In this document: positions 27,695 to 62,976 of the stretch, piece by piece
Position numbering within the stretch: the first letter of the stretch is position 1
Layout: every line of letters begins with the position of its first letter
Source of the DNA: Desulfobacteraceae bacterium Eth-SRB2
GTDB taxonomy: Bacteria; Desulfobacterota; Desulfobacteria; Desulfobacterales; UBA11574
Assembly: GCA_004193595.1 (NCBI GenBank)
Contig: RPGQ01000024.1
Coordinates: 16,017 to 80,016 of the forward strand
Length of the DNA stretch: 64,000 nucleotides
Direction: 5' to 3'
Made by a program: the position numbers and the translations under genes
Notes under the pieces: generated by a model
What the model was told of the DNA's origin: nothing
Databases searched by the model: none
The model's input: only the letters and a program-made list of their open reading frames with translations

Positions 27695-27742
27695 AATATT
27701 CCCCCCCGGATACGTTTACGTTTGAAATGATCTAAAGTTCCT

Positions 27743-27925: not shown

Positions 27926-27989
27926 CCTGAACCGCTGAACACTTATTATTTTTTTGACACTCAAATCTACTTATCCTATATTTCTTAAC

Positions 27990-29054
27990 ATGAAAATAGC
28001 ATTTATTCATTATCATCTCAAAACCGGCGGTGTAACCACGGTGTTACGGCAACAGGTGGAAACGCTCCGTGATACGTGTGACATGATGGTATTAACCGGC
28101 GCGCCTCCGGAATCGTCCTTTGTTTGCGACACCGTTCATATACCGGGACTGGGTTACGATCGCGGGGATCAAAATAGATCGGACCCCGAAGATATTGCAG
28201 CCGCCATCACCCGGGCGATCCATCTAAAATGGAAAGGCGGATGCGACCTTATCCATGTTCATAACCCCACACTGGCAAAAAACAGGGATTTTTTGAAAAT
28301 TCTCAAAGCGCTCCAAAACAAAAAGATCAAACTTTTTCTTCAGATCCATGATTTTGCGGAAGACGGTCGACCCTTAGTATACTTTTCTGAAGATGAATAT
28401 ATTCAAGACTGCCATTATGGGGTCATTAATTCAAGGGATTACAATATCCTGATCGAATCGGGATTAAAAGAAAAGGGGTTGCATAAAATTTTCAACACCA
28501 TAACTCCTTTTAATTTAAGTGCAAAAGGAGCACCCCCAAAAAACCTGGTTTTGTATCCGATTCGAGCACTCCGGAGAAAAAATATTGGGGAAGCAATTCT
28601 TATCTCCCTGTTTTTCAAAAACAATGAAACCCTTGCAATTACCCTTCCGCCCAACAGCCCGGCAGATCTGGAAAGCCATGCGCAATGGAAGGCGTTTGTA
28701 GAAGAAAAGAATCTGAATGTAATATTTGAAGCAGGTTTATCCCATGAATTTTCAGAACTTGTCATGTCCGCCAGGTTTATTATCACCACAAGTATTACCG
28801 AGGGATTCGGATTTTCATTTCTCGAACCCTGGACTGCAAAAAAAATCCTATGGGGAAGGAATCTACCGGAAATATGCCATGATTTTGAAAAAAAGGGGGT
28901 CTGGTTGGATCACCTTTACACACGTCTGGCGGTTCCCGTGGAATGGCTCGGTAAAGAAAAGTTATTTAGGACCTGGAAGGCGTGCATACGAAAAGCGTGT
29001 TCCCTATTCGGCATAGTTATCGATAACACGAAAATCGCCCAGTCACTTCTTTAA
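27990..29054 (+). CDS. GT-B fold glycosyltransferase (family-4-like)
   Basis: N-terminus MKIAFIHYHLKTGGVTTV. C-terminal region resembles a retaining GT-B nucleotide-sugar domain. The ORF-track start at 27954 is TTG. The ATG at 27990 is preferred. Confidence 0.6.
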   Translation: MKIAFIHYHLKTGGVTTVLRQQVETLRDTCDMMVLTGAPPESSFVCDTVHIPGLGYDRGDQNRSDPEDIAAAITRAIHLKWKGGCDLIHVHNPTLAKNRDFLKILKALQNKKIKLFLQIHDFAEDGRPLVYFSEDEYIQDCHYGVINSRDYNILIESGLKEKGLHKIFNTITPFNLSAKGAPPKNLVLYPIRALRRKNIGEAILISLFFKNNETLAITLPPNSPADLESHAQWKAFVEEKNLNVIFEAGLSHEFSELVMSARFIITTSITEGFGFSFLEPWTAKKILWGRNLPEICHDFEKKGVWLDHLYTRLAVPVEWLGKEKLFRTWKACIRKACSLFGIVIDNTKIAQSLL

Positions 29055-29123
29055 AAATTCTAATAATCGCGCCGAATCTGAGAGAGAAAGCTTTTTGGTT
29101 TTCGATATATTTTTCACCGTATT

Positions 29124-30586
29124 CTACAACGGCAAAACACTTTCAAAGTTTAGCCCTCCTTTGGCACCCGTGTTTACAGCCGCGCCGTTGAATGGTATCC
29201 TGGTTTTTTTCCACCTCATGGTCAAAATCCGCCCTGACTTTGAAAATTTTATTAAATTTTGAATCATGGTTCTGGAGCAGGTGAAAACAGGTGGATAGCC
29301 GCTGAACAAGACAACCTTTGACTTCCAGCGGGGACCGGTTCCGGCCGAAGGGATGATGTGCCGTATCCCAGGCCTGGAAGCAAGATCTTCTATAAAAGGA
29401 GCTTTGTTTCTTGTAACGCACGTTTGAGCGCTTCCCACACGAACGCCGGGTTCATGAGGTGATAATTCGATTTCCATTATCAGACAACCGCCGTTGGCTC
29501 TGGCGGAGAGTGATCCGGCCTGGACCATGGTAAAGTCTTTGTGATAATGGTTCTATATGCTCTTTTTCAATTTGGCCGAAAACATTGTGATGCGTCGGAT
29601 TTGTTTCAAAATAACCGGGGCGCTCTTTTAAAGGATTTTGATCTACCAACACATTGACCTTATAGTTGAAAGAGGTTTGGCATTTGAAACATGAAGCCCT
29701 CAATGGGTGATTTTGCTTCCTGAGAAGATATAAAACTCTTTAACGTTTTCCAGAATATCCTCCTGCAATCTTCGTCCAGAGCAGAATGCTTTGCATCCCT
29801 TGTATTGTTCCTCCTTTACATTATCTATCCGTTGTTTCACTACGAACAAAGGATTTCTTCCATGAGCTTTCAACTTGAGAAGTCATTACCTGGTTGATTT
29901 TATTGCCTCGACCGTATAATGACTTCTGGATTGAACCATACTGATCCTTTCCTCGATTTCGATTTCTGTTTCCTCTGAAGGCCATAAACTCCTCCGGTGA
30001 AATCGGCTTTTCCTTTTTAACAATGGGGATGGTTTGATACCCAATTTTGGTCCTGTTAAGCTGATATTATCTCTTCTTTTCCTTTGCCGACGCTTCGAGC
30101 GCTCTTGAATGACCTTCTTTTGTTGATCAGGAATAGCCTTTTTGGATTTCAGATTGTCTCTGGTGATACGATCTCATGCTCAAAGGCTTTGGGCAACTCT
30201 TTTCAGATCATCAATTAACTTGTTTATTGTTTTACTGAACTGGTTGCTTTGCTCTGTGGGCACGGGCTTCGGTTTTGGGGTGGTATTCATCCTTAAAATT
30301 GCTGACCATGCACCAATCCACGGGTGACGGAAGCGGTTTTTGCTTGCTTGTCGACCAGGTCTCTGATGATGGTAGATTTACCGGTGCCTTCTAATCCTGT
30401 GACAAAAAAATGTTGTAGCCCCGACTTTCTTACATGTTCAGGCCGAAGTTTATGGCTCCGAACCGCCCGTTCCTGTCCGATGACTTCATCCAGGGATTTA
30501 CTTCCGCAGTATTTCTTAAAGGTAAACATCTTGTGATCACATATTGACCTAAGATCCGAAGGCTTTAATTCGCATGTTTTTTCATA
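29124..30586 (-). pseudogene. degraded inverted duplicate of the 5' 60% of the Lon-like protease gene
   Basis: Fragments in three frames match the intact gene at 33619. 30293-30529 matches MFTFK..DEVIGQERAV..FVTGLEGTGKSTIIRDLVDKQAKT. 29452-29703 matches YKVNVLVDQ...FETNPTHHNVFGQIEK. 29143-29421 matches LLQNHDSKFNKIFKVRADFDHEVEKNQDTIQ exactly. The start region has A6 versus A7, which frameshifts it. Confidence 0.78.
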
Positions 30587-31426
30587 ATCTTCTTCTCCTT
30601 AAAAAATAAAAATTCAATAACCGGATAATCATCACAGGGCAATTATAAGGATGTTCTATATTCATATGTTTTTTAAAATTTAGCAAATTATTAAGTTTCA
30701 AGATAATGATGAGGGTGTGATGGAAAGGATACCGGACAGCCTGTCAAGAATTTGTCGATTTTATTTTATTTGCTCACCAAGGTTTTTAACGCGGTTCTTA
30801 TTATAATATTATAACTATAAGGAATTATAATGAAAATATAGATATTTAACATGGGAATGATGCCACTGGCATTTGCTATTGCAAAAATTAAGAAAAGAAG
30901 AATGTCAGCGTATATTTATGAGAAAAATATTGCATATCAACAGATATCGTAGGAGAGGAGACGGTTTGCCAAGCATGGAACCGGTTCAAAAGAAGTCGGC
31001 ACCGATAGATAGACGCCGGAAAGTGAGAGACGGCATAACCCTTAAAGGATTTTGATCGCAGGTAGAACAATGATCCATATTACAGTGGCTCCTGAGAGGC
31101 GTAGCAATATGGATAGAAGAAGTGGGATGGAATAATATGCTGTAAAATAAAATGGTTACCATCGCCCACAAAAGACTTTTACGAATGTTTCAATATTGCT
31201 TTTGCAGGAATCTTTCATATAAATTAAAAAAGCACAAAAATGTGAAAGTAAAGATCCGGGTCCAGAGGGGGCCTGGTTTTTGATTATCCCCAGAGGGATT
31301 TAGTTTGTCGGCATTTAACGATTTTACGAAGTAATGGAGTATTGGAGGGTGGAGTAATGGAAGAAACCCCTTTTCATCGCTCTCAGAAAACAGATCCCTG
31401 AGAAAATCTGAAAATTTAAAGCTCTT
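30587..31426. repeat. left arm (non-coding part) of the about 2.3-kb inverted duplication; mirror of 32781-33618
   Basis: The reverse complement of 30527-31426 aligns almost base-for-base with 32781-33680. A small ORF intact in the right arm is broken here (extra T plus TAG). Confidence 0.8.
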
Positions 31427-31572
31427 TTAAATCAACACTCCAATACTCCATTACCCGGTTGATTTATACGGGCAGAGCCATTGATTCTGACCCCGCAATG
31501 GGACAGGTTAATGGCCCAGCCTCCGCCCATAGGGAGGACCAGGGTTTTAGAACCCAATAAAAAACGGCTAAA

Positions 31573-32781
31573 TATGGATACAGACAATTATATGATAACG
31601 GTGTGCCCATCATGTAAATGCAGGTATCGGGTTCCTGAAGCTTTTATTGGACGAAAGGTTTCATGCAAGAAATGCGGTAGCGGTTTTAGTCTAAACTTAC
31701 AGGAAGAAAGCGCGCAAAAACAAAACCGGCAGGATGCCTCATCCGAACAGGGAGAGGTTTGGGAAGTCTTTCAAGATGATGCCTATTTGGTGATCGGCAA
31801 ACTGGCTGTTAAGTACAAGTTTATTAATGAAAAACAACTCCAAAAGGCTCTATTGATTCAAGAAGAGGGAAAACGAGCCGGGCAGAAGCTGTTATTGGGA
31901 GAGGTCCTGGTTGCTCATAGGATGATATCTCAAGCCCAGTTGGATCTTCTTTCTTCAGTACAGAAAATGGTTGAAGTTAGAAGACTGGATGTAAAATTCG
32001 GAGCCATTGCCGTGGGAGAAGGATTCACGACCCGTGATGAAATTGACAGAGCATTAGAGGAACAAAATAGGATATTCAAAGAGAAAAAAACAATTCAGTT
32101 GATCGGTGATATATTGATTGAATCCAAGGTGCTTACGGAAAATCAGCGCGATTCAGTCCTTAAAAGACAAAAGCGTTTTGAAAAAATTACATCTGATGAG
32201 CAAAAAAGGCCTGATGTTTCTGATTCCCAAGAACAGATTGAAAGTGATGCTGAATTTAATCTTACTGTTTCAGAAGACAAACTTAATGCCTTTATATCGA
32301 TAAAAAGAAAAGTTTCCGGCCCGATTACCATCGATAACATTAAAAATTTCCTTCAAATCAAAGGGATCGAATACGGAATAGTAAACGATGATCAAATAGC
32401 AGAGTACCTGAAAATTATCGACAACAAAAAGAGGCATTGAAAATTGCAGAAGGCAAACCCCCGGAATCCGGAAAAGATGAGCACATTAAATATTACTTTG
32501 AAACAGATTCGTTAAAAGTAGGAGCAATTAAAGAGGGCGGAGCCATAGACTTTAAAGACAGGGGAGATGTTCCTAACGTAAAAGAAGGAGATCTGCTTGT
32601 TGAAAAAATACCTGTTGTGGAAGGCAAGGCCGGGAAAGACGTATACGGCAGTCCAATACCCCCACAAAAACCCAATGATATAAAACTCAAAAATGGGAAA
32701 GGCACTAAAATTTCTGATGATCGGATTAAAATTATTGCTAAAATTGACGGCATACCTGAAATTTCTGCTATGGTAAAGTAA
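31573..32781 (+). pseudogene. Zn-ribbon / 4x T2SSE_N-like repeats / DUF342 (FapA-like) protein, frameshifted and 3'-truncated
   Basis: MJ0042-type zinc ribbon (ITVCPSCKCRYRVPEAFIGRKVSCKKCGSGF). Four roughly 25-aa repeats (IGKLAVKYKFINEKQLQKAL; LGEVLVAHRMISQAQLDLL; FGAIAVGEGFTTRDEIDRAL; IGDILIESKVLTENQRDSVL). Then FapA_N-like (FLQIKGIEYGIVNDDQI) and GKPPESGKDEHI...GKAGKDVYGSPIPPQKPNDIKL. The reading frame shifts -1 at the A-run near 32426-32430 (ORFs 31481-32440 and 32437-32781). The ORF ends exactly at the repeat-arm junction (32781), before the expected DUF342 beta-helix region. Confidence 0.6.
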
Positions 32782-35090
32782 AAGAGCTTTAAATTTTCAG
32801 ATTTTCTCCAGGGATCTGTTTTCTGAGAGCGATGAAAAAAGGGGTTTCTTCCATTACTCCACCACTCCAATACTCCATTACTTCGTAAATCGTTAAATGC
32901 CGACAAACTAAATCCCCTCTGGGGATAATCAAAGCCGGGCCCTCTGGACCCGGATCTTTACTTTTCACATTTTGTGCTTTTTAATTTATATGAAAGATTC
33001 CTGCAAAAGCAATATTGAAACATTCGTAAAAAGTCTTTTGTGGGCGATGGTAACCATTTTATTTTACAGCATATTATTCCATCCCACTTCTTCTATCCAT
33101 ATTGCTACGCCTCTCAGGGCCACTGTAATATGGATCATTGTTCTGCCTGCGATCAAATCCTTTAAGGGTTATGCCGTCTCTCACTTTCCGGCGTCTATCT
33201 ATCGGTGCCGACTTCTTTTGAACCGGTTCCATATGGCAAACCGTCTCCTCTCCTACGATATCTGTTGATATGCAATATTTTTTTCTCATAAATATACGCT
33301 GACATTCTTCTTTCTTAATTTTTGCAATAACCGTACCAGTGGCATCATTCCCATGTTAAATATCTATATTTTCATTATAATTCATATAGTTATAATATTA
33401 TAATAAGAACCGCGTTAAAAAAACCTTGGTGAGCAAATAAAATAAAATCGACAAATTCTTGACAGGCTGTCCGGTATCCTTTCCATCACACCCTCATCAT
33501 TATCTTAAAACTTAATAATTGCTAAATTTTAAAAAAAAACATATGAATATAGAACATCCTTATAATTGCCCTGTGATGATTATCCGGTTATTAATTTTTA
33601 TTTTTTAAGGAGAAGATTATGAAAAAAACATGCGAATTAAAGCCTTCGGATCTTAGGTCAATATGTGATCACAAGATGTTTACCTTTAAAAATACTGCGG
33701 AAGTAAATCCCCTGGATGAAGTCATCGGACAGGAACGGGCGGTTCAGGCCATAAACTTCGGCCTGAACATGAAAAGTCCGGGGTACAACATTTTTGTCAC
33801 AGGATTAGAAGGCACCGGTAAATCTACCATCATCAGAGACCTGGTCGACAAGCAAGCAAAAACCCTTCCGTCACCCGTGGATTGGTGCATGGTCAACAAT
33901 TTTAAGGATGAATACCACCCCAAAACCATTTCCGTGCCCACAGGCAAAGCAACCCGGTTCAGTAAAACAATAAACAAGTTAATTGATGATCTGAAAAAAG
34001 AGTTGCCCAAAGCCTTTGAGCATGAATCGTATCACCAGAGACAATCTGAAATCCAAAAAAAGTATTCTGATCAACAAAAAGAGGTCATTCAGAAACTCGA
34101 AGCGTCGGCAAAGGAAAAGAATATCCAGCTTAACAGGACCAAAACCGGGTATCAAACCATCCCCATTGTTAAGGAAAAGCCGATTTCACCGGAGGAGTTT
34201 ATGGCCCTTCCAGAGGAAACGAAATCCGAAATCGAGGAAAGGATCAGTATGGTTCAATCCGAAGTCGACGCCACGGTCCGAGAACTTAATAAAATCAACC
34301 AGGTAATGACTTCTCAAGTTGAAAAGCTCATGGAAGAAATCGCTTTGTTCGTAGTGAAACAGCGGATAGATAATGTAAAGGAACAATACAAGGGATGCAA
34401 AGACATTCTGGCCTATCTGGACGAGGTGCAGGAGGATATTCTGGAAAACGTTAAGGATTTTATATCTTCTCAGGAAGCAAAATCACCCATTGAGGGCTTC
34501 ATGTTTCAATCTGCCAAACCCTCTTTTCAACGCTATAAGGTCAATGTGTTGGTAGATCAAAAATCTTTAAAAGGCGCCCCGGTTATTTTTGAAACAAATC
34601 CGACGCATCACAATGTTTTCGGCCAAATTGAAAAAAGAGCCCATATGGGAACCATTATCACAGACTTTACCATGGTCCAGGCCGGATCACTCCTTAGAGC
34701 CAACGGCGGTTATCTGATAATGGAAATCGAGTCTATCCTCATGAACCCGTTCGTGTGGGAAGCGCTCAAACGTGCGTTACAAAACAAGCTCCTTTTTATA
34801 GAAGATCTTGCTTCAGGCCTGGGATACGGCACATCATCCCTTCGGCCGGAACCGGTCCCGCTGGAAGTCAAGGTTGTCTTGTTCGGCAGCTATCACCTGT
34901 TTCACCTGCTCCAGAACCATGATTCAAAATTTAATAAAATTTTCAAAGTCAGGGCGGATTTTGACCATGAGGTGGAAAAAAACCAGGATACCATTCAACA
35001 ATACGCTCGCTTTATTTCCCGGGTATGCAAAGAAGAGGAACTCCTGCCGTTAACCCCCAAAGGTGTTGCCGCCATTGTAGAATACGGTGA
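32781..35090. repeat. right arm of the inverted duplication (upstream region plus 5' part of the intact Lon-like gene)
   Basis: See left arm. Estimated 93-97% nucleotide identity to the left copy. Confidence 0.78.
33074..33232 (-). CDS. small basic protein with DRR/ERR repeats (hypothetical), divergent from the Lon-like gene
   Basis: MEPVQKKSAPIDRRRKVRDGITLKGFDRRQNNDPYYSGPERRSNMDRRSGME. Intact only in the right arm. The ORF-track start is at 33289. Confidence 0.35.
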   Translation of the reverse strand: MEPVQKKSAPIDRRRKVRDGITLKGFDRRQNNDPYYSGPERRSNMDRRSGME

Positions 35091-36036
35091 AAAATATATC
35101 GAAAACCAAAAAAAGCTTTCTCTCAGATTCGGCGCGATTATGGGAATTTTAAAAGAGGCTGACTACTGGGCAAAGAAAAGGAATGCAAAACGGGTTTCAG
35201 ACAAAGATGTTATCACCGCTTTCAGTGAATACCGATTTCGGTATAACCTTTATGAAGAAAAAATACACGAATCCTACGTGGATGATACCATTATGATCGA
35301 TGTGAAAGGGGATGTTGCCGGACAGGTAAATGCCCTTTCCGTATTTCAAATCGGCGATTTTATGTTTGGGCGTCCTTCCCGAATCACCGCCGAAACCTAT
35401 ATGGGCAAGCAGGGGGTTGTTAATATTGAACGGGAAGCCAAGCTGAGCGGAAAGACCCATGACAAAGGCATTCTGATTCTCTCCGGTTATTTGGGACGAA
35501 CTTTCGCGCAAAACTACCCATTAAGTTTATCCATCAGCATCACTTTTGAGCAAAGCTACAGCGGCATCGACGGCGACAGCGCTTCTTCGACGGAACTGTA
35601 TGCCGTTATCTCAAGCCTTTCAAACATTCCCATCCATCAGGGGATCGCGGTAACCGGTTCAGTGAATCAAAAAGGGCAAATTCAGGCCATCGGAGGGGTT
35701 AATCAGAAAATTGAAGGATTTTTTGACGTCTGTAAAAGCAAAGGACTTACCGGCAAACAGGGAGTATTAATTCCCCGGGCCAATGTAAAAAATCTGATGC
35801 TTAAAAAAGATGTGATCGATGCCGTAAGAAAAGGAAAATTTCATATCTATCAGGTTTCTACGATTGAAGAAGGAATAGAGATATTAACAGATGTTCCTGC
35901 AGGAACTCCGGATAAAGAGGACTACTTTCCCGAAGGAACCGTTTACGGCAAGGTACAGGAAAAGCTTAAACGATATCTGGAACAATTATTTAAACTTAAA
36001 AAACAATTTGAGGACGAAGACGAAACAACCGTATAG
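33619..36036 (+). CDS. Lon-like ATP-dependent protease (COG1067 type: AAA+ module plus S16 Lon C-terminal protease domain)
   Basis: Walker A VTGLEGTGKST. S16 domain with catalytic-Ser context SYSGIDGDSASSTELYAVISSL and a downstream Lys (IGGVNQKIEG). AAGGAG RBS. 805 aa. Confidence 0.85.
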   Translation: MKKTCELKPSDLRSICDHKMFTFKNTAEVNPLDEVIGQERAVQAINFGLNMKSPGYNIFVTGLEGTGKSTIIRDLVDKQAKTLPSPVDWCMVNNFKDEYHPKTISVPTGKATRFSKTINKLIDDLKKELPKAFEHESYHQRQSEIQKKYSDQQKEVIQKLEASAKEKNIQLNRTKTGYQTIPIVKEKPISPEEFMALPEETKSEIEERISMVQSEVDATVRELNKINQVMTSQVEKLMEEIALFVVKQRIDNVKEQYKGCKDILAYLDEVQEDILENVKDFISSQEAKSPIEGFMFQSAKPSFQRYKVNVLVDQKSLKGAPVIFETNPTHHNVFGQIEKRAHMGTIITDFTMVQAGSLLRANGGYLIMEIESILMNPFVWEALKRALQNKLLFIEDLASGLGYGTSSLRPEPVPLEVKVVLFGSYHLFHLLQNHDSKFNKIFKVRADFDHEVEKNQDTIQQYARFISRVCKEEELLPLTPKGVAAIVEYGEKYIENQKKLSLRFGAIMGILKEADYWAKKRNAKRVSDKDVITAFSEYRFRYNLYEEKIHESYVDDTIMIDVKGDVAGQVNALSVFQIGDFMFGRPSRITAETYMGKQGVVNIEREAKLSGKTHDKGILILSGYLGRTFAQNYPLSLSISITFEQSYSGIDGDSASSTELYAVISSLSNIPIHQGIAVTGSVNQKGQIQAIGGVNQKIEGFFDVCKSKGLTGKQGVLIPRANVKNLMLKKDVIDAVRKGKFHIYQVSTIEEGIEILTDVPAGTPDKEDYFPEGTVYGKVQEKLKRYLEQLFKLKKQFEDEDETTV

Positions 36037-38906: not shown

Positions 38907-38988
38907 AATTCAAGAAAGGATAAACGTATTTGATTTCGTTGTAGCGTAGCGCTTTCCCTGTATTGGGATTCAAATGCGTTTGCCCTGA
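38907..38988. mobile_element. internally deleted MITE family 2 remnant
   Basis: Right end (ccctgtattgggattcaaatgcgtttgccctg) identical to 15553-15584. A degenerate left TIR (ggataaacgtatttga). Flanking direct repeat gaaattcaag(a). Confidence 0.5.
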
Positions 38989-51256: not shown

Positions 51257-51620
51257 GGGGGCGAAACGGCTTCGACGGGGATAAAGAAGCATCGGCTGCA
51301 TGCCAAGCTCCTGCCGGCTTGTAAAAAAGGCGGGAAACTTAAAGTAATCGCAGACGATTATAATTACGCTTTAGCCGCTTAAGGCTAACGTCCTACCGGA
51401 TTATTCCTGCGCATCCGGCAAGGGCGTCGACAAGCAGGATAGCCGGTCCCGATATCCCGTTAACGGATCGGTCCTGCAGGCGGCTTTTGCGAAGGTTATG
51501 GGTTTCAGGCGATTGCGTCCGCACTCTTTTATCATCTATCTTGTTATCGTTTTCGGAGATCAGGTATTGCATTTCAATACAAAACAAGCCTTCCAGTAAA
51601 GGCGGAGTTTGATCAAAACA
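51257..51620 (+). ncRNA. ssrA: tmRNA-like (ssrA) sequence; 5' acceptor/TLD half and tag ORF recognisable, 3' T-arm/CCA not found
   Basis: GGGGGCGAAACGGCUUCGACGGGG 5' consensus. Tag reading frame gca gac gat tat aat tac gct tta gcc gct taa (51350-51382) encodes ADDYNYALAA*. The 3' end is approximate. Confidence 0.55.
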
Positions 51621-51639
51621 GTTTCGGCGACGAAACAAT

Positions 51640-54600
51640 ATTTATATCCTATTTGCTGGCGTGACGATATGGCAGGTTTCCGCGTAAAGTCGCTCAAACC
51701 GGTATTTCGAAGATCTACCTGATTCTTTATTTCTATTTATTTTCTATTTTTATGCGTGACATCGGCGCTGACTTGTTTTGAAAAGTTATACGCCTAAATC
51801 GGTGCTTTTGCCTCGGCAAGCCATTTTAAGATTCAGCATTGCTACGGCGAAAATCAAAATTGCGATTAGATAGTATTGATCACGGCAAATGACAACAGCC
51901 GAAAGTCGTCAGTTAACGGTGGTAAGTAATTGACCAGTCACACGACACCGGCATGCTCATCAAAATGCCCAGCCGCGAAGTACCAGCGCCGCCATATACG
52001 ATTTCGACGTCTCATCCAGCAAAATGAAATGTCATGGCCTTTGATCTGCTCCGCATGATGGCGTTTATTTTCTAGATCAGTATAAGTTAGGTGCTGGTTT
52101 GCGTACGATTTCCCCATCAATCTTAATTTAGGCAGACTCTAATCGTTTTTATACTTTATCTCGCAATAAGCTTCGTTTTAGTAACTCTTTGGGCTCTCTA
52201 CCAGTGTCGCGGAAGACTCAGTACCTTAGCTGAAAGCGCTCGCCAGACAAATAGAATGGTGCGAAAGGTTTTAGTTAAATTTTCGGTGCGTAAAGTTTCC
52301 TTTATCCATAGGTGAGCCCCAAAAGTAGCGTATGTAGTCCAACGATATGTACAGCCAGAATACAAAACCACCGATAGCGTAAGTACTGAACTCTTCCCGC
52401 TCAAACAGCAGTGATTACATTTGTCAACAACTTCAACAAGACGACCATGAAAAAGACGATCGCGTAACGATAAACACTGGCTCTGCTTTTCGCCGGACCC
52501 GACCGCAGCAGATGACCCAAATATCCGGCCCATTCAGCCCTTAACGGCGTACTAATAACATTTTAATTGAACGTTTTTTCGTGATCTAAACGTAGCGTTT
52601 CACCGTAAAAAGCGGTAATTGTATCTTTAACCAGAACCTTGATCGGGATTAATTTCTGGCTGGATTAATTCTGTTTTAGCGTTTAATCCGGCAACTCCGA
52701 CCATGAAAATCATTCTTTAATGGCAGCAGTACGTTTGAAGAACGCTTTATAAAATTGATAGGTCGCATGGTGATAGAAAAGCTTAAACTGGAAGAAAAGA
52801 AAACCGCGCGGCGATTTGTCCGAAATGAGGCGCGCAACTATCCGGTTCCTGATTTACTCGAACAATTTGATTAACCTTGATGTAAGGGGCCCAAAAAGCT
52901 TTATGCTCAACCGTTATTTGGTTGTAACATAGGATTTTGAGGCGGTTTATTTGATACCAGCAATAAAAGGAACAACCCCAGAATTTATTACAGATTTTAT
53001 TGAAAGCTGCACAATCAATGTAAAACGCTCAGCAAGTTACAAATTACTTCCAGGATTGCTGATGATTTTCGATGCCAAATCAGCCGCAATCACTATTTCT
53101 TGAGCTCGCGACCCAGGACATTGACGTGAATTAAATGAAATGATTAGCAGATATTTTGTACCAAGTTTTAAAGTGCCGGATGGAAAGCCAGCCATCGATT
53201 TTGTATAGTCAATTCCGCACCTTAGGCTTTATTTTGATCTGGTAATCGCGATTTCATCTTTGGACGTCAGCGCTTAAAGCGAACTTTTTATTGCTGAACG
53301 CGTTGAAGTTTCTGTAGTCAAATTTGATTACCTGGATTTCATATTTCTGATGGTCCCAGATTCCAATTAATCTTTTAAAGCAAAATATGCTAATCACTTC
53401 CTGTGGGAGGCACCAGTCCGCCGATCTTGATCTTTTATTGATTGGATATAATTTAATCATCAGCAATCCCGGTGCTTTCGCGGCCAGTCCGTTTTAGTCG
53501 GCGATGGAGGCATGGCGTTATGAAATCGCGTAAACAGATCCTAATCATCGCCCTTTGCAAATGAAAACCGGACTCCACTAAAAATCAGTTAATTCTAGAA
53601 TCTGTGGTGGAAACTTTAATCGAGATGCTCGGCACCCGCCTCCAGGCAAATGGCGATAGGGCGAAACCAGGTAAAGGGATTTTCGGTGTCTTTTATGTTA
53701 AAGGGCCTCATAAAGCTGCACTTCCAGCAGCAAACCGTAAACCTAAACCCACGATGTTTTGTAACTTAGTTATGTCGCATCTTCTTTTTCGGCGCGGCGG
53801 TAAGGAATTGAAAAACGGGTGGATAATCAAAACTCGAAAATGGATGAAAAAGAGACACCAGTCGAAGTTTCATCTGGATCTGGTGTTCTGACGAATCTTT
53901 GTATCGCGGGATAAACTTAACAACCTGAAAACCGGCTGGAAGCGCATTAATTCCAGGCGTATGCGCCAAAATGATACGATCTCTCGGAGGCTCAAATAAA
54001 TTAGGTTATGCTCAGTTCTGGAAATCGATTCATAGTGCGCGACGCCGCTAAACCGACATCGTACTAAAACGCCACCGAAAGCAACGGCGAACCATTGCAT
54101 GTGGAAAATGAAATGACAGCTGAATCTGGAAAAGAACCTGCGCAGGCGATTAAATAAGAAAATTAAGGCGTTTTGCTGAAAGTTGATAGAGACCGATTGT
54201 CATGGTCGGTGTTTGAGAGGCGTCAGGCAAAACTGCTGGCGGCAAAAACCGACCAAAACCTACTCACTTAAATAAAACCCACCAACGCGTCGACGCCGCC
54301 CTTCGGGATTATAAAATAAGCAAAAGTGGCGTTTTGATGTTTTACACTCGATGAAAGACGATCGTCAGAAGAAAATATATTGATAATGTTAAGATTTTGA
54401 AATTAGCTTTCAGGAAAATTAAACTGCTTCGGGATTTTGGCGTAATGGAAGGCATATGCGCGGCTTAATTTGTTCACCATCGGTTTATTTCTGACTCTTT
54501 CGTGGAGCCGCCGGCTTCCTCCCTGGTTTTTAGATCATAATAATTTAAACTGTAACTCCATAAAATAAAACCCGCCTTGATGGTGCAACCATACACCAGC

Positions 54601-57600
54601 CCGATCTCGATCCATTACGCCCCGCTATATACACCCCAAAACCCTAAATGGGCGAACCAGCAATCCAAGCATTATCACAGCAGGAATATGGACTATCTGG
54701 ATGAAATCACAAAATAATATCACCATGGCTTTTATCCGCGCTTGGAAAGGGCGAAGATGCAATTCAAGGACGTCGAAGAACGCCCCACCAGCACCACAAG
54801 TCTCCGAATTCTGCGACTGATATTATTTGAGAATCCATGACCAGTTGCTGCTATTCCAATAATGGCGATTGATGGCGGAAAACAGATATTTTATGACGGC
54901 TCCATTACCGATCCCCTCTGTAATCGTTTATCCCCCGAATAATCATCCAGGAGAAGCCATATTTTCGTTCAGCAGTCTGTTTCATCCCCAGTGGCAACAT
55001 TTGCGGCGGAAAACGGTCAGTGGTATTGGGAATTGTATTAGTTTTTCGGATTAACATCAACGGAAATGAGATGAAGCTCGGGGAAAGGGTGACAGGTAAA
55101 TCCCAATTTGTAAATTATTATGATTGGGTGGAAACCAGCGTGCAATCGTAATTCAAAAGGAAGACCTAAAACCAGTTGCCACGACCGCGAAAATCATTCG
55201 CCAACCTGTGGAAATGGAGCCGGATGGATTTTCTATCCTTTTTTCAAGAATAAAGTCGCTTTCCTACGCACTTTAAATCTTTCAAAAGCGCTATGAAATA
55301 GGAGTATTAGGAATGATTATATTTGGCGTCGGCCATATTCATTCAAAATATAAGCAAGCCTTTACATTGTTTAACGATGCTGCCGCGCTTATCTCTGTTT
55401 TGCCGGGGCGGTATCTATGGTACGGTATGTTGAAAGAAAGTGCTGAGTTTCGATGGCGAAACACGGCTCTGAGACCGACGAAATGGATTACGAAGGGCAA
55501 CCGCATTTGATGAAATTTTAACTCAGGTTAATACTGGTTCTTTGACCTCCAGGGTCATTTGTTAAATGCCGCCAAAACGAAGGTTGAGGAATGGTTTCTA
55601 CCCCATTGCCAAAACTGGAAGTGTATTTGCTAGTAAGATATCCATTACTTTGTCGGAATTATTACGTCTCCGACACTGCATGGAGGATTCTTCGCAATGG
55701 CGTAAGCGGAAATGGGCTTAACTATCCTGTTTTTACGGAGAACAATCTCTAAGATCGTACATTTACAGGCGACAACTGTTCGGCTATTGCTGATGGAAAT
55801 TAATAGAAATATCTGCCTTCGGTCTTATCTTCAAGGGCGTATTGGTCCTGTGGGATGGCCAAACCAATAGCCCAAAACTGCGTTAGAGCCCCATCATTGC
55901 GTTGACCGCGATAAAACCGACGGGGCCGAACGCACGGGAAAACCAAACTGGCGATGACTGTTGAACGTTCCCATCGGTTAAAAGGAGATCCGCGAGGTAC
56001 TGCTTGTTTCTTTCAAAATCACACGGCGCGTCAGGCCTCCAGGGATTACGCTATGCGTAACATTCAAACAATGGGCGAAGATCGGTCGATCGTTAAGAAA
56101 GCCATGTTAGAAAACCCTATACCGCCTTTGGCAACCGATATTCTTTTGGGTAGATCGGTTTTTATTCACAGTGGCGACCAAAATGCCATGTTCCGAAGCT
56201 CGAAAATTCCTGAGAATTACAAACAGTTTGAAGGCGACACCCGATGCGCCTGTTACCAACCGGCCGACAGTTTGTTCGGTCACTCCCTATAACCTTCCTG
56301 ATATCAGTGCTTTGTGGTACCCTTGGATTTTGAATCAAGATATCATTGAGTATGCCGCTTTACCGGCATCGATTACTTCAGTTGATAATCGGATTGTTTA
56401 TCGCGAGGTTGATTTTGAAACGGAAGACATAGACGAATTTCAAGAAAACTATAAAGCGGCTCCATTCCTGCAAAGCGTTTATCACGTCTTTTGTGGCAAA
56501 ACCAAATTATTTAGGTGCCAGGGTAAAATTAATTGACAGGTAAATATTCCAAACATAATCTAAAAAATCGGTCTCGCCAAAGCCGATAGATTGGGTGCAG
56601 AAACAACTCCTGTAGATATTTCGCCGGGTTTCGGAAGGTTAGCCGAAACGCCCGTTACCGAGCAACAAGGTAATGGCGCGCGATCACTGAGTGGGGCCCG
56701 GGATGGGTAAAACAAACGATTTTCGATACGCTGTCTCTTAAAGTTTCTTTTTCCAAACTTCCTATTAATATATTGCTGGCTGCTCCGACCGGAAGAGCTG
56801 CAAAACGAATGAATGAAACAACCGGGCATGAAGCAAAAACAATCCGGCTTAAGAATTTGCTTCGAGTATAGCATTCGGTATGGCGGATTCCCGAAAACGA
56901 TGAACAACCTTCGGATTTCGGTTATGATTTATTTCGATTAATCGATGAAGTTATCGACGTCCTGACGCATTAATTTTTAAAGTGCTTATCCTGTAGCCAG
57001 CTGACTCTTCTCCTTGTTGGAGATGTGAACCAGCTCCCTTCCTGTCAAAGCTGGAAATGTATTAAAGATATTATCCGTCTCGTACCGGTGGCAGGAGCCT
57101 AACGAAAATATTCCGGCTCGTGGCTGAAGATGAAATCGAGAATAACCAACAATTCCATAAAGTACCATTAAATTTGCGCTCGTATTCCTTCATTTCAGAC
57201 TCTGCTGTGACATGGATTCTTTTATTTTATCTCAGTGCGAAGCCGATCCGGAAGACGCATTGATGGATTATTTTAGAACTTGCTAAGGATCGTATGTACT
57301 CCGACAGTGATTCGGATTTGGATCCTTTGATGACATTATTGTGATTTCCTTGACACTCTATACCGTGCCAGATCAAAGTCTGCTTTCTAAACTCAAACGC
57401 CATCGAACCAAAACCAAAATCCCGGTGTAGGCTGGCGTATGCAACATTAGGGTAACAGAAATTTCAGAGTCAACGACAAGGTCATGCAGATCAAGAATAA
57501 TTATGATTGCCGATATTCTTTAATCGATATCGGAATGAATTTCCAGAATAAACTGAAGGAGTGGTCGGTGATCATCAATATCTGACGGAGTCGACCCGTT

Positions 57601-60600
57601 GAATATGACTATACAGACCTGGATTGAAAATTGTCCCGGCATTATGGCGTTTCCAGTCTGAGCAGTCGCATGATCTGGAATATCCTGGCTGTGGATTATC
57701 CCTGATTTTGTAATTCTTTACTACTACTTCGGTGCCATTGATGGATTTTGGTTGCAATGGAATTTTGATTTATACAGCTGTTTACCAAGAGGCTCTGCTT
57801 TCGGTTTGTCTGCGGGTTTGGGAAATCAAAGAAAGAATTGCGTATGATCTATGTCAGGGAATCGATAAAACCCGGTTTCATTGATACGCAACTGTTATAC
57901 GCCTGAACCTCATGAATGTAATTGATTTAAGATTTGCTTATTTAATTATAATGACTCCCTGAATCCATAGTCGAAATCAGATCGGGTAACAGCTTAAATT
58001 CCAAAAAAATAGGAGCCTCCATACGCCAAAGAACAAGCCTGGTGATGACTCACCAAAGTCAGTGAGATTAACATCTGTAACCCTGACTCAAAATCCACCC
58101 CTGGCTCTACCAAAAACGGCTTCATGACCACAAATTATATGCAAACCTTCCTAGAAAACAAAGCGTCCCCGAACTGGAAGCAGCCACGCCCCACCAGCCG
58201 TAGTTCCTGCACCAGAAGCGTTAAAGCGTTATTGAAGTCCAGCCAGTGAGAACCCGGCCACAACCGGCAAAGCGGTGATGGTTTACGCCCTACCTGCGCC
58301 TGTTACGGCGTCATGAATTTGTTCAGGCGGAAACTTCCTCGGCAGCGGATCAAATTAAAATTTAGGCGAAAAAGAGCAGAGCAACCGTCCAAACCCAATG
58401 GCCCAGAATATTTCTATTGCCCCGGTTTTCGTACGAACGTTTATGGTTTGGAATGCGTCCAAAATCCGGGTAATGTAAAAAGAACTGCCGCAGCTTCTGA
58501 AATTAGTATGGCCGTTCCCGAAAGATCCGCGATGATAGTGTAGAGGGTGGTCTAACTGTGCTTTCCATAGGTGTTCCACCGCGGCACCGCATCGTTAACC
58601 CTCGCCATCCCGAGCCAGCAGGTGCCGTAGCAGCAACGTTTGCAGAAACGCAACAGATATTTGTAACTTCTGGCGCTCCGCTGATCAAAAACAAGATGCG
58701 CGGCTGGATCGGCTCCATGCTTTAATCGATGACTTTGCAAGTGGGATTTTATCTGGATTCTGTTAGAGATCGTCAAGAGGTAAGGGTCATCTGAAACCGC
58801 TTCCCTTAAAAATTGCTGATGGTCGCCCAAATCAGCAAAACAACCTGAAGAAACAAACAGGAACTTTTTTTCATTTTCGAGGACATGGCGCCTGGTTCTT
58901 GTCCCCTGTTTGCAAGGCAGCCGGCATAAGTACTGGAGAGCTTCCTTCGATTTTGTTGAACTTGCGCTTTCGCATTATTTCCTGTAATGAACGGTAAATT
59001 ATGGCGTTCAGCGCTTTATTTCGCTATGGGCAAAGCGAAGTTTAAAGCCGCTCACGCCGTATGCCTCTATGCGGATTGAAACGACAGTCAGGCTCCTGAA
59101 CAGATGGTTTGCATATGAATAGCAAACATCGCCAGTCCCCGTACTGAAGAGGCGTACAAGCAATATGCGCTGACAGTTAATCGTATTAGTCAGACCTAAT
59201 CTCGGCGACGTCTTTGTGAAATATTTTGCAAAAAATACTCCGATGAAAGCGCCATTTCAGCGTTCAAATCCTGGAAGATCTGGCTTGAATCAACGCCGGG
59301 CGGAATAGGCTGAAAGTATGCCTGGTAACGGCAAAATCAGCCTTCCGGATAGCGTTTATTAGCGCTTTAAGTTCCGCCTATCAAAGTCCGCAAGAGAACG
59401 TTAACAATTGAACCTGCGCTATTTGCGGAGATTATCTTGAAAAGATCCTGGGTAATTGAAATTTTGGCGCGTTTATGGCATCACTTCACTGCGGCTGGCT
59501 TCAGAGGGATGGGGCGTATGAATTGGCGGCGATGCGATGCAATATTCACCAAGACCGCTATGAGTGCGGCGGAAACTCCTGGATATCGCGGCGGACGAGG
59601 TAAAGCAGATTTATCGATCGTAATACGGATAAATCCTCCTGGGGATTTCGTTCGTGGTATGATTTTATCCTCGGTCGTCATTTCTGGATTTCTAAGAGAA
59701 CATGGTGTTGATCGAATGGCTTTCCTCAAACCATTCATCCCTTTGCCTTGGCCTAATTCCTGTATTTCTGTTTTTCTAGAATCCTCCGACTACCTTAACG
59801 AAGTCGAAAGTGAAAACATCTTAGAAAGCCGAACCTCAAAAGAAACATTCCAAAGCCTATCCTGGTATGTCTCAAATTTTTTTCCCCATCCTAATTCTAT
59901 TTCACCCCTAATCATCTTTTCATTAAATTTTTTTTCGATGACCGAGATATATTTAAATTAGAGAGTTCGTAAATGGCATTTCTTGAAGCACGAGTTTTTT
60001 GTTGATCAAGACAAAAGTCGGTTAAAGAGTTTCTTGGTTTCTATTTTTAAACGCAAGGCAGGCATGATATGGCGTAAAAATCCGGTCGAAACAGTGCCGA
60101 GCAGCCAGCATGAATGTACTTTTCGGGATTTCCGTAATGGAATACTGGGGAAATTCCTGGAGGTGTCTGAAAGTGGATGCGATTGCGTTGAGAAGGTTTT
60201 GAATCTGATTTTAAATAAACTGCTGATATAAAGGGCGTGGTAAAATATCCCGACGCGATCCCGATTCTGTATTTCTTGGTGTTCTATAAACTCAGGTTCT
60301 GTGGTAATTATTTCCCAGCTCTACATCGTTTCGATATATAATATTAATAACATTATTATATATTTTATCATATACTTCCATATTGAAATCCAAAACACCC
60401 TGGCACTCTGGATTTTAAAGTTCCATCGAAATTCTATCTACCTACCTGTCCGCGACATTTATTATGATTCATAGGCGGTGACAAAAGAATTGTGGTACCG
60501 ACAGATGCGGGTTTCTCCCTGCGGCGGCGCAACCGGCGAAAATGTCCGATGCAGAAAATGTCCGATGGAAAATTCGAAGGATCACCCTTAGTGCTATGCT

Positions 60601-61290
60601 CATGGATGATAAATGACAAACGCCCATCCTGCGTCCATGATTCGGCAATGATTTTTTATCAGGATTTTTAACCATCCGGCTCATCAGTCATGGAAACAAT
60701 CTTGCCGGTTTATTTCATTATCTTTATAGGAAAATCTCGTTGTCAGAAAACTCTCAAAGTTCCTACCGCCACCTAGATAAGTTCTTGAATTATGCCCTTT
60801 ATATCCGGAAACCGAAATCTGTTTCACAAGGCGCAACCGAGGGCGGCTTAAGCGGCGAGGCAATTAATTAATAGCCGAGGAGGCGTTTCTATCCTTTGGA
60901 AATATTAATCCATTGTGGTCATTTTGCAACTCCTGCTTCGGAGTGAAACGACCGATGATCCAGCGAACCTGCGAAATGCAGGCGAGGATCTTTGGGAGAA
61001 TCGAAACGTTATCGAAAACAGCCCAGTCGGGCAACGAGACAGCGTTCCGTCGAATCTGATCAGGTAAAGCGCCAACCGGGGCACGGTTTGGTATTACTGT
61101 AAGTTTACGACGTTCTGCGACAAAACCCAGTCCTTTTCGAATCCGGTGGGCGGTGCCTTCGCAGGATCTAACCTGCCACCACTAAGGCCGGTGGAGGGCG
61201 GCGGTTTCAACCCAAGCGTCCTTCGTGGAACATTCCTGCGTGACGGGCGTTCCGGCGACATTACTATTATCCTGAAAATTTCTAATTTCG
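51640..61290. other. about 9.7-kb ORF-poor segment of decayed (or artefactual) sequence
   Basis: No ORF above 174 codons in any frame. Overlapping short ORFs in three frames. Protein-motif remnants interrupted by stops. k-mer texture differs from 1-51 kb. Confidence 0.6.
56650..57110 (+). pseudogene. RecD/TraA-like SF1B helicase remnants
   Basis: Translation fragments WGPGMGKTN (Walker A, 56692-), PINILLAAPTGRAAKRMNETTGHEAKTIRLKNLL (motif Ia, 56761-), DLFRLIDEVIDV (motif II-like, 56926-), VGDVNQLPS..W.CIKDI (motif III, 57016-). Stops and frameshifts separate them. Confidence 0.5.
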
Positions 61291-61299
61291 CCTTCCTGC

Positions 61300-61598
61300 A
61301 AGTCCTTCCCAGGCATGATGCGTTTCGATAGGTCATCCCGCAAGGCCGATTCTACCGGATCCGTTTAACGCGGATTATCGACCGGCTTATCCTGTGTTTG
61401 TCGATCGCCCTTGCTGGATGCGCAGGAATTAATCCGGTAGGACGTTAGGCCTTGTTTTGCCTGTAAAGGCGTAATTATTTAATCGTCTGCGATTACTTTA
61501 AGCCCGCCTTTTACAAGCCTGCAGGGAGCTCGGCATGCAGCTGATGCTTTATCCCCAGGTCAGTCGTTTCGCCCCTACTAAAGAGATTGTTCTGTGAT
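61300..61598 (-). pseudogene. second, degenerate tmRNA-like copy (inverted)
   Basis: Reverse complement begins GGGGCGAAACGACUGACCUGGGGAUAAAG... and aligns to 51257-51560 at roughly 75-80% identity. The tag frame is destroyed (gca gac gat taa). Confidence 0.45.
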
Positions 61599-61609
61599 GA
61601 GGAAAGAAC

Positions 61610-62700
61610 TGATATTTCATAAACTGCCCATTGGCTAGTTTCTTCCTCTGCACCTCTTTCTATACTATATCATATCAGGAGGGTAAACTTTCACCAAGTT
61701 TTGGGTGTATTTTCAAATTTAATCATATTAACCTGGCGCCATAATTTATTGCGATTTTATATCAGCGGTGAATTTTCGGGTTCTTTCTCCTTCTCTTGGA
61801 TTGGGAAGTCAATTCAAAACAAACCGTTCCGCAGTACGTCATCTCCATCCGACAGTTCCACAAACGATTGAAGATGAGCAGTCCTCTAAATCTGCTTTGG
61901 CGTGATTAAATCAAGGGGAAAGAATCCGTTCCTAAGCGGAGGCCGATGCTGGTGTGTCCGTAGAAGCAAGGTTTGTCCGGTGGATAAGAGCCTGTTCCTT
62001 TCTCTTAGAATAATTCCTGAATGATGTTCTCTTCTAGAGTCTATTTTTCTTCAGTCTTATCAAGCAGTTTTTAAGATCAAAGCCCTTCCTTCAAACTAAT
62101 CTTGGGCCGTTTTAAGTGCGTCACAGGCAACTCTGATTTGCTCGGCCTTTCACCCTCCGTGTCACTCTGAATTTGTTTCCTGTTTTTGGAATTAAATAAA
62201 ACAGCTCGGACCTGTCCTCCTGACCAAAGCTGATTTAAAAACCCCATTTAACGCTGCGCCCAGCGCTTCCAACGGAAACGATAATTTTGGTAGATTTTGT
62301 TTCGATGACCTTGTAATCGCCCCACCATGAAAACTCATTTTGGTATGTGCGATCGGCAGAACCGAAATCATAGTCCCGAAATTTTAGGTGATGGCGCAAT
62401 TCGTCCTGTCTCGTAGCAAAACCTCGCTTCACATTCCCATTATAAGCGGCGAAATCACGGGGTCAAAATGTTCTGGCGCGTCTTCATCCTAAAAAGAGCT
62501 TTACGTTTGTCGGATTTGTTGGTAATTCCTTCGTCCTGTCGGTGAAGCAAAAGAATCCTGCGAAACGACGTTAACGAGGAATACGTCCAGCAACACGAAG
62601 TCCGGATGACAATCTTCTTTAACGTTAAAATTCGCCAGTATGTTATTAAAACCAAGATCAAACCTTTATGACTTTTATAGTTGCGCGGCAATGGTAAACA
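61610..62700 (-). pseudogene. degraded inverted copy of the NRDE-family gene (plus its 3' flank)
   Basis: Nucleotide homology to 50940-51250 (e.g. gagaaggagaaagaacccgaaaattcac cgctgatataaaatcgcaataaattatggcgcc). Peptide remnants LLLHRQDE (compare ILAANRDE) and FSWWGDY (compare SFWDDAPG). Confidence 0.45.
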
Positions 62701-62976
62701 GTATTCGTCTGTTTTCCTTTTACTTTAATTTTTGGTACCGTTATTTAGCGCATACTTTATCAGGCATTTTTGCAAAAATCAAGGCTTTTTTATTGTAATT
62801 TTAAGCATAATACGCCAAAATGTCCCCAAATTGAGTGATTTTACAGCAACACATACTTTATCAAAAATTGCCGGCTAAAACCAATGCCGCTAACAGTAAG
62901 GCTTTCTTACAATCCAACCGTTATTTGCTATCATAGCTTTTTCCCCTGCCTCTTTTACTCATAACTGACGGTAATG

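Follow-up and report, generated by a model that had tools for sequence, protein, structure and literature searches.

Self-BLAST of the window (the whole 64,000-nt stretch of DNA analysed here) revealed a mirror match between 29041-31429 and 35164-32779, with 91.5% identity over 2458 columns (E=0). The arms of this inverted repeat are 2.39 kb long, far above chance expectation, and their pairwise alignment yielded 2254 matches, 62 mismatches and 95 indel events. The mirrored arms of the original prediction (29124-31426 and 32781-35090) were confirmed with limits close to ours, the true arms extending about 80 nt further outward on either side.

The right arm (32779..35164, plus strand) is native, clean sequence, made up of the intergenic region upstream of a Lon-like gene (region U) followed by codons 1-515 of that gene. 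It is collinear with the sister genomes at 88-94% identity with few gaps, and no arm-specific indels were found in it. The Lon-like protease gene itself (33619..36036, plus strand, 805 aa) is intact. Pfam analysis identified AAA_32, LonB AAA-LID, LonC_helical and Lon_C domains within this single ORF, which makes it a LonB/LonC-type protease, and the protein is 91-95% identical to its sister proteins. Look-ups of the Lon-like, RmlC and TANGO2 proteins of the window gave no identical entry; the best database matches are 94-97% identical, and genome and metagenome scans yielded only relatives, at 97% identity or less. A small DRR-repeat protein gene, which is native and conserved upstream of the Lon-like gene, lies within region U (33074..33289, minus strand, 71 aa). 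A small DRR-repeat ORF had been predicted here and is indeed present, but it is this minus-strand ORF and not a plus-strand ORF of 98 aa.

The left arm (29041..31429, minus strand) is a noisy reverse-complement copy of the same two parts, with Lon-like codons 1-515 at 29041-30596 and region U at 30597-31429. As had been proposed, its outer part is a copy of the Lon-like gene full of frameshifts and its inner part the intergenic region upstream of that gene; the outer part is 1.55 kb long and covers codons 1 to about 515, and the inner part measures 840 nt. The gene to the left of this arm is a glycosyltransferase-like (GT-like) gene (27954..29040, plus strand) with weak Pfam matches to Glyco_trans_4 and Glycos_transf_1. 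Only its 5' part, residues 1-365 of about 477, is present. GT-like ORFs in all the sisters are 469-485 aa long, and when the 477-aa protein of sister L091 was compared with the window by tblastn, only residues 1-365 were matched.

Between the arms, the 1.35 kb centre (31430..32778, plus strand) carries the 5' part of a DUF342/FapA gene, comprising a Zn-ribbon and FapA_N and corresponding to residues ~3-408 of the 764-aa sister protein, in an orientation opposite to that in all relatives. FapA_N was detected by Pfam, although split by a frameshift. The FapA beta-solenoid (PF03961), present in sister L091, was not found in the window, so that only a fragment of the gene is present in the centre. 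Two frameshifts, at 32426 (A6 to A5) and 32772, fall in homopolymers, and a compensated pair occurs at 32626/32632; all the frameshifts of the centre are homopolymer-length errors, and they cluster no further than 350 nt from the right junction. The DUF342 stop codon claimed to sit on the arm junction does exist, as a TAA at the right junction, but it is created by a GGG to GG homopolymer deletion 7 nt before that junction.

Junctions and native gene order

We compared the locus with its counterparts in independently assembled relatives, 160 related loci of Desulfobacterales in total. The native order is a GT-like gene, a HAD hydrolase gene, DUF342 (optional, on the minus strand), the intergenic region and the Lon-like gene, with DUF342 and the Lon-like gene diverging from the intergenic region. 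Relative to this order, 29041-32778 corresponds, in reverse complement, to a single uninterrupted native piece composed of the DUF342 5' part, the intergenic region and the Lon 5' part. Lon was found on both strands in 0 of the 160 loci and the arms in none of them, and no relative shares the arrangement. The 27 sisters that carry DUF342 all have it on the minus strand, and the HAD gene is kept in 50 of the 50 loci with detectable GT/HAD upstream genes. Set against all relatives, the arrangement is derived: an inverted duplication by which DUF342 is truncated, as originally predicted.

There are only two non-native junctions. At the first (J1, 29040..29041), which was mapped by base-level comparison with five sisters and the right arm, codon ~365 of the GT-like gene adjoins Lon-like codon ~515 in reverse complement, with 2 nt (GC) of microhomology. 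At the second (J3, 32778..32779), DUF342 codon ~408 runs directly into the intergenic region, at a point lying 52 nt upstream of where DUF342 starts, with at most 1 nt of microhomology. The suggestion that the junctions are illegitimate agrees with this near-lack of homology. J1 and J3 interrupt conserved genes mid-codon, and three conserved genes are affected. By contrast, there is no rearrangement at 31429/31430, which had been taken for the left junction, because the left arm and the centre are contiguous native sequence, only reversed. The 19-mer inverted repeat that was thought to mark this junction is present, but it forms part of a native long-range hairpin (31332..31454) in the DUF342-proximal intergenic region, with a stem of ~17-19 bp and a loop of ~80 nt (z = -5.5 and -6.3 versus shuffled sequences). 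The hairpin spans the boundary between left arm and centre. Since the 19-mer belongs to a hairpin whose native sequence is uninterrupted, we rejected it as a recombination site. Breakpoint c of J3 sits 4-7 nt from the native hairpin stem.

GT residues 366-477, the 281-aa HAD gene and DUF342 residues 409-764 were not found anywhere in the window. The native sequence lost amounts to about 2.4 kb. A 'mirror-image gap fill', i.e., a fill with strand-swapped read coordinates, predicts a fill of the same length as the missing native sequence. The inverted fill is 3738 nt long, and in sisters the native gap measures ~3.2-4.0 kb; these lengths are compatible with such a fill but are not decisive, and we do not claim it.

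Error spectrum of the left arm and a second noisy block

The differences between the arms are almost all confined to the left one. In the coding part, at least 39 indel events are specific to the left arm compared to 0 for the right arm, and in the non-coding part the arm-specific indel counts are 13 for the left arm and 2 for the right, or 13+10 versus 2+1. Five right-arm-derived differences were considered as real divergence or a second strain and rejected, all of them lying in poorly aligned, noisy flanks; robust right-arm changes were not found, even at non-coding and synonymous sites. The left-arm indels are balanced (49 insertions and 46 deletions), with none longer than 7 nt. The substitution:indel ratio of the left arm is 0.65, whereas natural divergence of the same sequence gives 5-11 in non-coding and more than 90 in coding regions: substitutions and indels in the intergenic region number 34:3 and 47:10 versus sisters, and in the Lon gene the 94-139 substitutions versus seven sisters are accompanied by 0 indels. 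Homopolymers are compressed as well. Among those of at least 5 nt (n=24), 16 are shortened and 2 lengthened in the left arm; among those of at least 6 nt (n=11), 9 are shortened and 0 lengthened, leaving 2.5 such runs per kb in the left arm versus 4.6 per kb in the right. The noise is distributed unevenly, with 50 events in the inner and 100 in the outer half of the left arm; it is minimal where the arm meets the centre at their native boundary, and maximal at J1. Judged from the sequence, this spectrum is the profile of uncorrected long-read sequence, apparently of nanopore type.

A second noisy block (51473..62755, minus strand) lies 20 kb from the inverted Lon duplication in the same window. 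It has the same anatomy, being a reverse-oriented copy, at raw-read quality, of adjacent native sequence: the TANGO2 gene, the complete tmRNA and a downstream region of ~9.7 kb. Its final 1.39 kb (61358-62743) mirrors clean sequence at 50163-51469 with 70% identity and 103 gap openings. In the clean copy of the tmRNA (51265-51472) the 3' third is absent, the clean sequence ending inside the gene, while the copy in the block runs on through the full tmRNA 3' end. The block is much noisier than the left arm, with error reaching ~30% and long homopolymers at 1.0 per kb versus 4.3 per kb. The arrangement is shared by none of the relatives. The interior of 9.9 kb is unique in the window, yet unpolished. 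No long ORFs were present in the block, its ORF fragments had no Pfam matches, and its interior did not match the sister loci. A known phage, plasmid or spike-in origin of the interior was rejected, with one 74-nt phage match at chance level and zero plasmid matches. A k-mer anti-diagonal search for a hidden fold-back palindrome in the interior gave no signal, although its power is low at ~30% noise in both halves. The outcome of the phage, plasmid, Pfam and sister-locus comparisons is consistent with a strain-specific island downstream of the tmRNA that was read with very low accuracy. Overall, a second block with the same properties in the same window suggests a technical cause rather than a local biological event.

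Assembly artefact versus biological rearrangement

Because the left arm bears the error signature of an uncorrected long read in the wrong orientation, an assembly artefact is the most likely explanation, rather than a biological rearrangement. Based on its sequence features, the left arm is probably derived from an inverted chimeric long read that was built into the assembly and left unpolished. The observations behind this are the geometry, the error profile, its one-sidedness, the absence from relatives and the second case in the window, and from them we infer the read-level cause and the polishing history. The contig path runs forward until the middle of the GT-like gene, jumps ~6 kb ahead into Lon codon ~515, passes backwards across the Lon 5' part, the intergenic region and the first 408 DUF342 codons, and then jumps back to the intergenic region before going forward again. 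Such a forward-reverse-forward path would be the expected product of an inverted chimeric read, which may originate from template switching during amplification, from ligation or fold-back during library preparation, or from a strand error of the assembler or gap filler. The forward copy would be clean as it is backed by genuine reads. The unique centre would be mostly polished by genuine reads, with residual homopolymer errors rising toward the false junction, while the duplicated reverse arm would draw few or no genuine reads, such that its raw-read errors would stay.

Several points count against the artefact. The centre and J3 lie in nearly clean sequence, and some genuine reads must have been placed there. 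There is no simple fold-back palindrome but a unique centre of 1.35 kb, with two junctions within 3.7 kb. The unpolished unique interior of block 2 also requires an extra assumption, namely that it was too noisy for read mapping or that a clean copy exists on another contig. Finally, a hybrid pipeline could alternatively give the same pattern of clean and noisy sequence around a real inverted duplication, if short-read contigs with a collapsed repeat had their second copy gap-filled by a raw long read.

A real variant in the strain or a subpopulation, generated by two replication template switches or by an inversion with staggered breaks, is an alternative that we regard as rather unlikely. 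Such an event would have duplicated the intergenic region and the Lon 5' part in inverted orientation, flipped the DUF342 5' part and removed 2.4 kb, and the noise would then reflect a second repeat copy filled with a raw long read, or nanopore base-calling failing on the trailing arm. The clean/noisy boundaries do match the short-read graph nodes of a real inverted repeat (unique flank, collapsed repeat and unique centre), and J3 is within nearly clean sequence; but the noise peaks at J1 and is least at the native boundary, which is the opposite of support for a real J1. Nanopore accuracy is reported to fall past the junction in true inverted duplications (PMC7229812), but with normal two-strand coverage this effect should be equal on both arms and be corrected in the consensus. 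Although the forward-reverse-forward geometry with low microhomology can also be given by in vivo template switching, a real event would destroy the GT-like and HAD genes, kept in 50 of 50 loci with detectable GT/HAD genes, as well as DUF342 (27 sisters), and it is seen in 0 of the 160 relatives. It would also leave block 2 unexplained, whose unique 9.9 kb match the duplicated arm in noise, and two events within 64 kb, each exactly co-extensive with raw-read-quality sequence, would be an unlikely coincidence. In its fullest form this alternative has the inverted duplication physically present in some or all of the source population, due to a very recent double template switch whose arms have no measurable divergence, with the DUF342 5' part inverted and HAD deleted, and with the noise ascribed to nanopore failure and incomplete polishing; the 2.4 kb repeats could then flip the centre by homologous recombination. 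We consider this improbable. A real structure would amount to no more than an ordinary structural variant, probably with deleterious effects.

An old inverted duplication of natural origin, in which ordinary mutation has turned the left copy into a decayed pseudogene, would account for the lack of an intact ORF in the left copy next to the intact right copy. It is nevertheless refuted in practice, since the spectrum is one-sided and dominated by indels: the substitution:indel ratio is far from that of natural divergence, the balanced indels show no deletion bias, homopolymers are systematically compressed, and the right arm has no robust changes even where they would be non-coding or synonymous. 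The left-arm changes extend into non-coding sequence as well. The arm does not represent pseudogene decay, and we assign this explanation a negligible probability. An equally remote alternative is a programmed, or formerly programmed, invertible segment acting as a phase-variation switch that flips the DUF342 5' region or a promoter, for which the 1.35 kb segment between inverted repeats and its reversed orientation would speak, but the arms are 2.4 kb copies of coding-gene sequence absent in every relative, the junctions truncate genes mid-codon, relatives show a single orientation (27/27), and Pfam scans of the 20 neighbouring ORFs within 15.7-51.1 kb detected no serine/tyrosine or other site-specific recombinase. 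The earlier proposal of site-specific recombination or a formerly invertible promoter is not borne out for the same reasons.

At face value, the contig would imply a false Lon pseudogene, false truncations of the glycosyltransferase-like gene, DUF342 and the tmRNA, and a false loss of the HAD hydrolase, and the structure could be mistaken for a phase-variation switch. In a metagenome-derived contig, a wrongly oriented, unpolished long-read segment alone can mimic an inverted duplication on the kilobase scale in which one copy looks like a decayed pseudogene. The substitution/indel ratio, outgroup polarisation, homopolymer compression and gene-order comparison with sisters together provide a screen for such artefacts that does not need the reads.

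Comparison with known systems

The locus resembles invertons (fim, hin and shufflons) in having inverted repeats around a short segment upstream of genes. Unlike in invertons, its arms are kilobase-sized fragments of coding genes rather than short conserved recombination sites, a recombinase is lacking and the structure is not conserved in relatives. Tandem inversion duplications and FoSTeS/MMBIR-type template switching contribute to structural variation in both bacteria and humans. The inverted duplication, the adjacent deletion, the inverted unique segment and the microhomology of 0-2 nt are all similar to those of in vivo template-switch events, but real events of this kind yield copies of equal quality with mainly substitutions on both, whereas here errors of a technical type are found on one copy only.

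Collapse of nanopore accuracy past an inversion junction has been described by Spealman, Burrell & Gresham in 2020 (PMC7229812). The far lower quality of one arm of the inverted duplication, and the ~30% error in block 2, are similar to this effect (PMC7229812). The Spealman effect, however, concerns single reads and is strand-specific, so that a two-strand consensus should remove it, and it does not account for the noisy unique spacer of 9.9 kb in block 2.

Inverted-repeat chimeric reads are a known artefact of nanopore libraries, where they make up 0.18-7.33% of reads (PMC13141652), and palindromic long reads also arise from whole-genome amplification (Pacasus paper, 10.1101/173872). Unlike in palindromic chimeric reads, the fold here is offset, giving a unique centre of 1.35 kb and a deletion of 2.4 kb, and two junctions are therefore needed. 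In other respects the locus is like inverted chimeric long reads, with a local forward-reverse-forward path, homology-free junctions inside genes, and a reverse segment that is indel-rich, homopolymer-compressed and at raw-read error. As in mis-assemblies caused by chimeric reads, the pattern is missing from independent assemblies and recurs within one assembly.

Inverted repeat and native Lon locus

An inverted repeat is present, as the original prediction held: self-BLAST pairs 29041-31429 (left arm, minus strand) with 35164-32779 (right arm, plus strand) at E=0 and 91.5% identity over 2458 columns, with 69 mismatches and 89 gap openings, and a repeat search of the window broke this pair into 25 or more collinear pieces. 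The right arm comprises the start of an intact Lon-like gene (33619-36036, plus strand, 805 aa; AAA_32, LonB AAA-LID, LonC_helical and Lon_C domains) and the 840 nt upstream of it; the left arm is its mirror, with no ORF longer than 142 codons. The 1.35-kb centre (31430-32778) carries a Zn-ribbon and FapA_N (DUF342) region split across two frames, and the FapA beta-solenoid domain is absent from it.

Using the Lon-like protein as query, we obtained 80 genome and 80 metagenome loci from Desulfobacterales relatives (up to 94-97% identical), and none of these 160 loci has Lon sequence on both strands. In the 55 whose upstream sequence is informative, the genes are arranged as follows: a glycosyltransferase-like (GT-like) gene (plus strand, ~475 aa), a HAD-type hydrolase gene (plus strand, ~281 aa), an optional DUF342 gene (605-767 aa), an intergenic region and Lon (plus strand). 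DUF342 is on the minus strand in all 27 relatives that carry it. Its presence is polymorphic: 27 loci have it between HAD and Lon, and the 28 that lack it otherwise keep the same gene order. The N-terminal region of DUF342/FapA is highly variable among these sister loci.

Comparison with sister loci L001 and L091 shows that 29041-32778 is a single uninterrupted stretch of native sequence in reverse orientation, running from DUF342 codons ~1-408 through the intergenic region to Lon codons 1-515. Therefore the left junction originally placed at 31427 is contiguous sequence in the native locus rather than a rearrangement point, and the 19-mer inverted repeat thought to mark it is a native hairpin. 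Two junctions, and no others, depart from the native order. At J1 (29040/29041), GT-like codon ~365 abuts the complementary strand of Lon at codon ~515, and the two sides have 2 nt in common. At J3 (32778/32779), DUF342 codon ~408 meets sequence lying 52 nt upstream of where DUF342 starts, with no more than 1 nt in common. Nowhere does the window contain the rest of the GT-like gene (residues 366-477), the rest of DUF342 (residues 409-764) or the HAD gene.

The native hairpin (31332-31454, one arm also at 32863-32881) lies between the DUF342 start and a small divergent gene, and has a stem of ~17-19 bp, a loop of ~80 nt and a z of about -5.5 to -6.3. It is made of an 8-nt-periodic motif (CATTACTCC ACCACTCC AATACTCC ATTAC) and may serve the divergent genes jointly, as an RNA structure or as a site bound by a regulator. 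The small gene (33074-33289, minus strand) precedes the Lon-like gene, is oriented away from it and is conserved there in sister genomes. It encodes a 71-aa protein with four DRR-type repeats (IDRRRK, FDRRQN, PERRSN and MDRRSG) and without a Pfam family; translation may in fact begin at an internal Met, residue 20, because several sisters differ in frame near residues 26-31. Further upstream, between a solute-binding-protein gene and the GT-like gene, are two 89-nt direct repeats (27728-27816 and 27836-27924; 94% identical, 108 nt apart), also present in L001 (4010-4207). Each forms a long imperfect hairpin (-24.5 kcal/mol, z -4.1); they have no Rfam match, and their core 22-mer has no exact match in 168 fetched loci.

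One-sided noise in the left arm and centre

Aligned pairwise, the arms match at 2254 positions, mismatch at 62 and differ by 95 indel events, whereas natural divergence of the intergenic region gives 34 substitutions to 3 indels (L095) or 47 to 10 (L091). Within the Lon gene, at least 39 indels (23 insertions, 16 deletions) fall exclusively in the left arm, against none in the right arm and seven sisters despite 94-139 substitutions each. When the non-coding part was polarised with outgroups, 13 indels and 10 substitutions were unique to the left arm versus 2 indels and 1 substitution to the right; in the Lon part, the five changes that seemed to belong to the right arm sit in noisy, badly aligned flanks and are not robust. 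Because this polarisation is one-sided, the left arm is the right arm plus noise, and real divergence between the two is not measurable.

This noise has a nanopore-type signature. Among 24 right-arm homopolymers of at least 5 nt, the left arm has a shorter run at 16 and a longer one at 2; at 6 nt or more (n=11), it is shorter at 9 and longer at none. The density of runs of at least 6 nt is 2.5 per kb for the left arm, compared with 4.6 per kb for the right arm and 4.3 per kb for clean sequence. The outer half of the left arm, beside J1, has about twice as many noise events (100) as the inner half (50), where the arm meets the centre as in native sequence.

There is almost no noise in the centre itself. 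Set against the intact 764-aa DUF342 of L091, every frameshift in it is an error of homopolymer length, and these are grouped within 350 nt of J3: A6 is reduced to A5 at 32426 and GGG to GG at 32772, with a compensated pair between them at 32626/32632. Frameshift-type gaps reach 2.6 per kb versus ~0.07 per kb in clean coding regions. The stop codon reported on the arm junction is there, but its cause is the GGG to GG deletion 7 nt earlier.

A second reversed block at the tmRNA

The same anatomy recurs in block 2 (51473-62755, minus strand), with an error of ~30% compared to ~7% in the left arm. Clean sequence at 50163-51469, containing a TANGO2/NRDE gene and the 5' two-thirds of a tmRNA, pairs with 62743-61358 at 70% identity with 103 gap openings (self-BLAST). 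There are no long ORFs throughout 51.5-62.7 kb, block 2 ORF fragments gave no Pfam matches, and long homopolymers are strongly depleted (runs of at least 6 nt, 1.0 per kb; zero in the block's arm). Gene calls within 51.5-62.7 kb are not to be trusted; intact genes (PEGA domain, ParE) are found again from ~62.98 kb.

The clean tmRNA (51265-51472) is cut off without its 3' third: its Rfam-model alignment ends at ~51470, the T-arm and acceptor 3' end are missing, and ARAGORN did not call it. Block 2 was compared with sister contigs L165 (the same contig as Lon locus L087) and L161. The clean copy stops at 51472, equivalent to L165 position 11189, and the noisy minus-strand copy runs 137 nt beyond, through the tmRNA 3' end to 61190 (L165 position 11326). 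This comparison establishes block 2 as a reverse-oriented, raw-read-quality copy of the native TANGO2-tmRNA-downstream region, and its insertion point is where clean sequence breaks off. Only the degraded copy of the tmRNA (~61562-61190, minus strand) is complete.

Two intergenic elements were also observed. A ~260-nt repeat (3263-3495, 45332-45590 and 48150-48411; 91-95% identical, few gaps) has two copies flanking gyrA and another upstream of TANGO2 in L161 (2598-2870), and looks like a MITE/REP-like mobile element. A 272-nt element (15309-15580), 90% identical to L001 15311-15582, may be another: the L001 counterpart is downstream of a PBP gene, equivalent to ~38.95 kb in the window, where only a 40-nt trace remains (38948-38987).

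Origin of the inverted duplication

The contig path runs forward-reverse-forward twice within 64 kb. On each occasion the reverse segment has the quality of uncorrected long reads, and conserved genes (GT-like, DUF342, Lon and tmRNA) are interrupted at junctions that lack homology. Our assessment is that the inverted Lon 5' duplication is probably a sequencing or assembly artefact; it is thus most likely not a real feature, and the biological interpretation first given to it was not confirmed.

If the structural variant were real and a hybrid pipeline had used raw reads to fill in its second copy, a similar clean/noisy pattern would result, but this is unlikely given that noise peaks at J1, that block 2 holds 9.9 kb of unique but unpolished sequence, that conserved genes are lost and that the arrangement is missing from 160 relatives. 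Natural pseudogene decay of the left copy is excluded in practice by a one-sided, indel-dominated, homopolymer-compressed spectrum; decay is expected to show a deletion bias, and the left arm has 49 insertions to 46 deletions, the largest at most 7 nt. The proposal of a programmed, formerly invertible promoter segment finds no support, with no recombinase among neighbouring genes, arms that are unconserved coding-gene fragments and one orientation only in relatives.

The artefact is most simply explained by the contig having taken up inverted chimeric long-read sequence, or by a strand error made during assembly or gap filling. Genuine reads would then have polished the forward copy and also the unique centre, less well nearing the false junction. 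They would have partly polished the left arm's inner end, which is natively contiguous with the centre, and would have left block 2, with its heavy noise, and what remained of the duplicated reverse arm unpolished. The literature supports an artefact of this kind: in nanopore ligation libraries, 0.18-7.33% of reads are inverted-repeat chimeras (PMC13141652), palindromic long reads arise from whole-genome amplification (10.1101/173872), and nanopore accuracy collapses past an inversion junction (PMC7229812).
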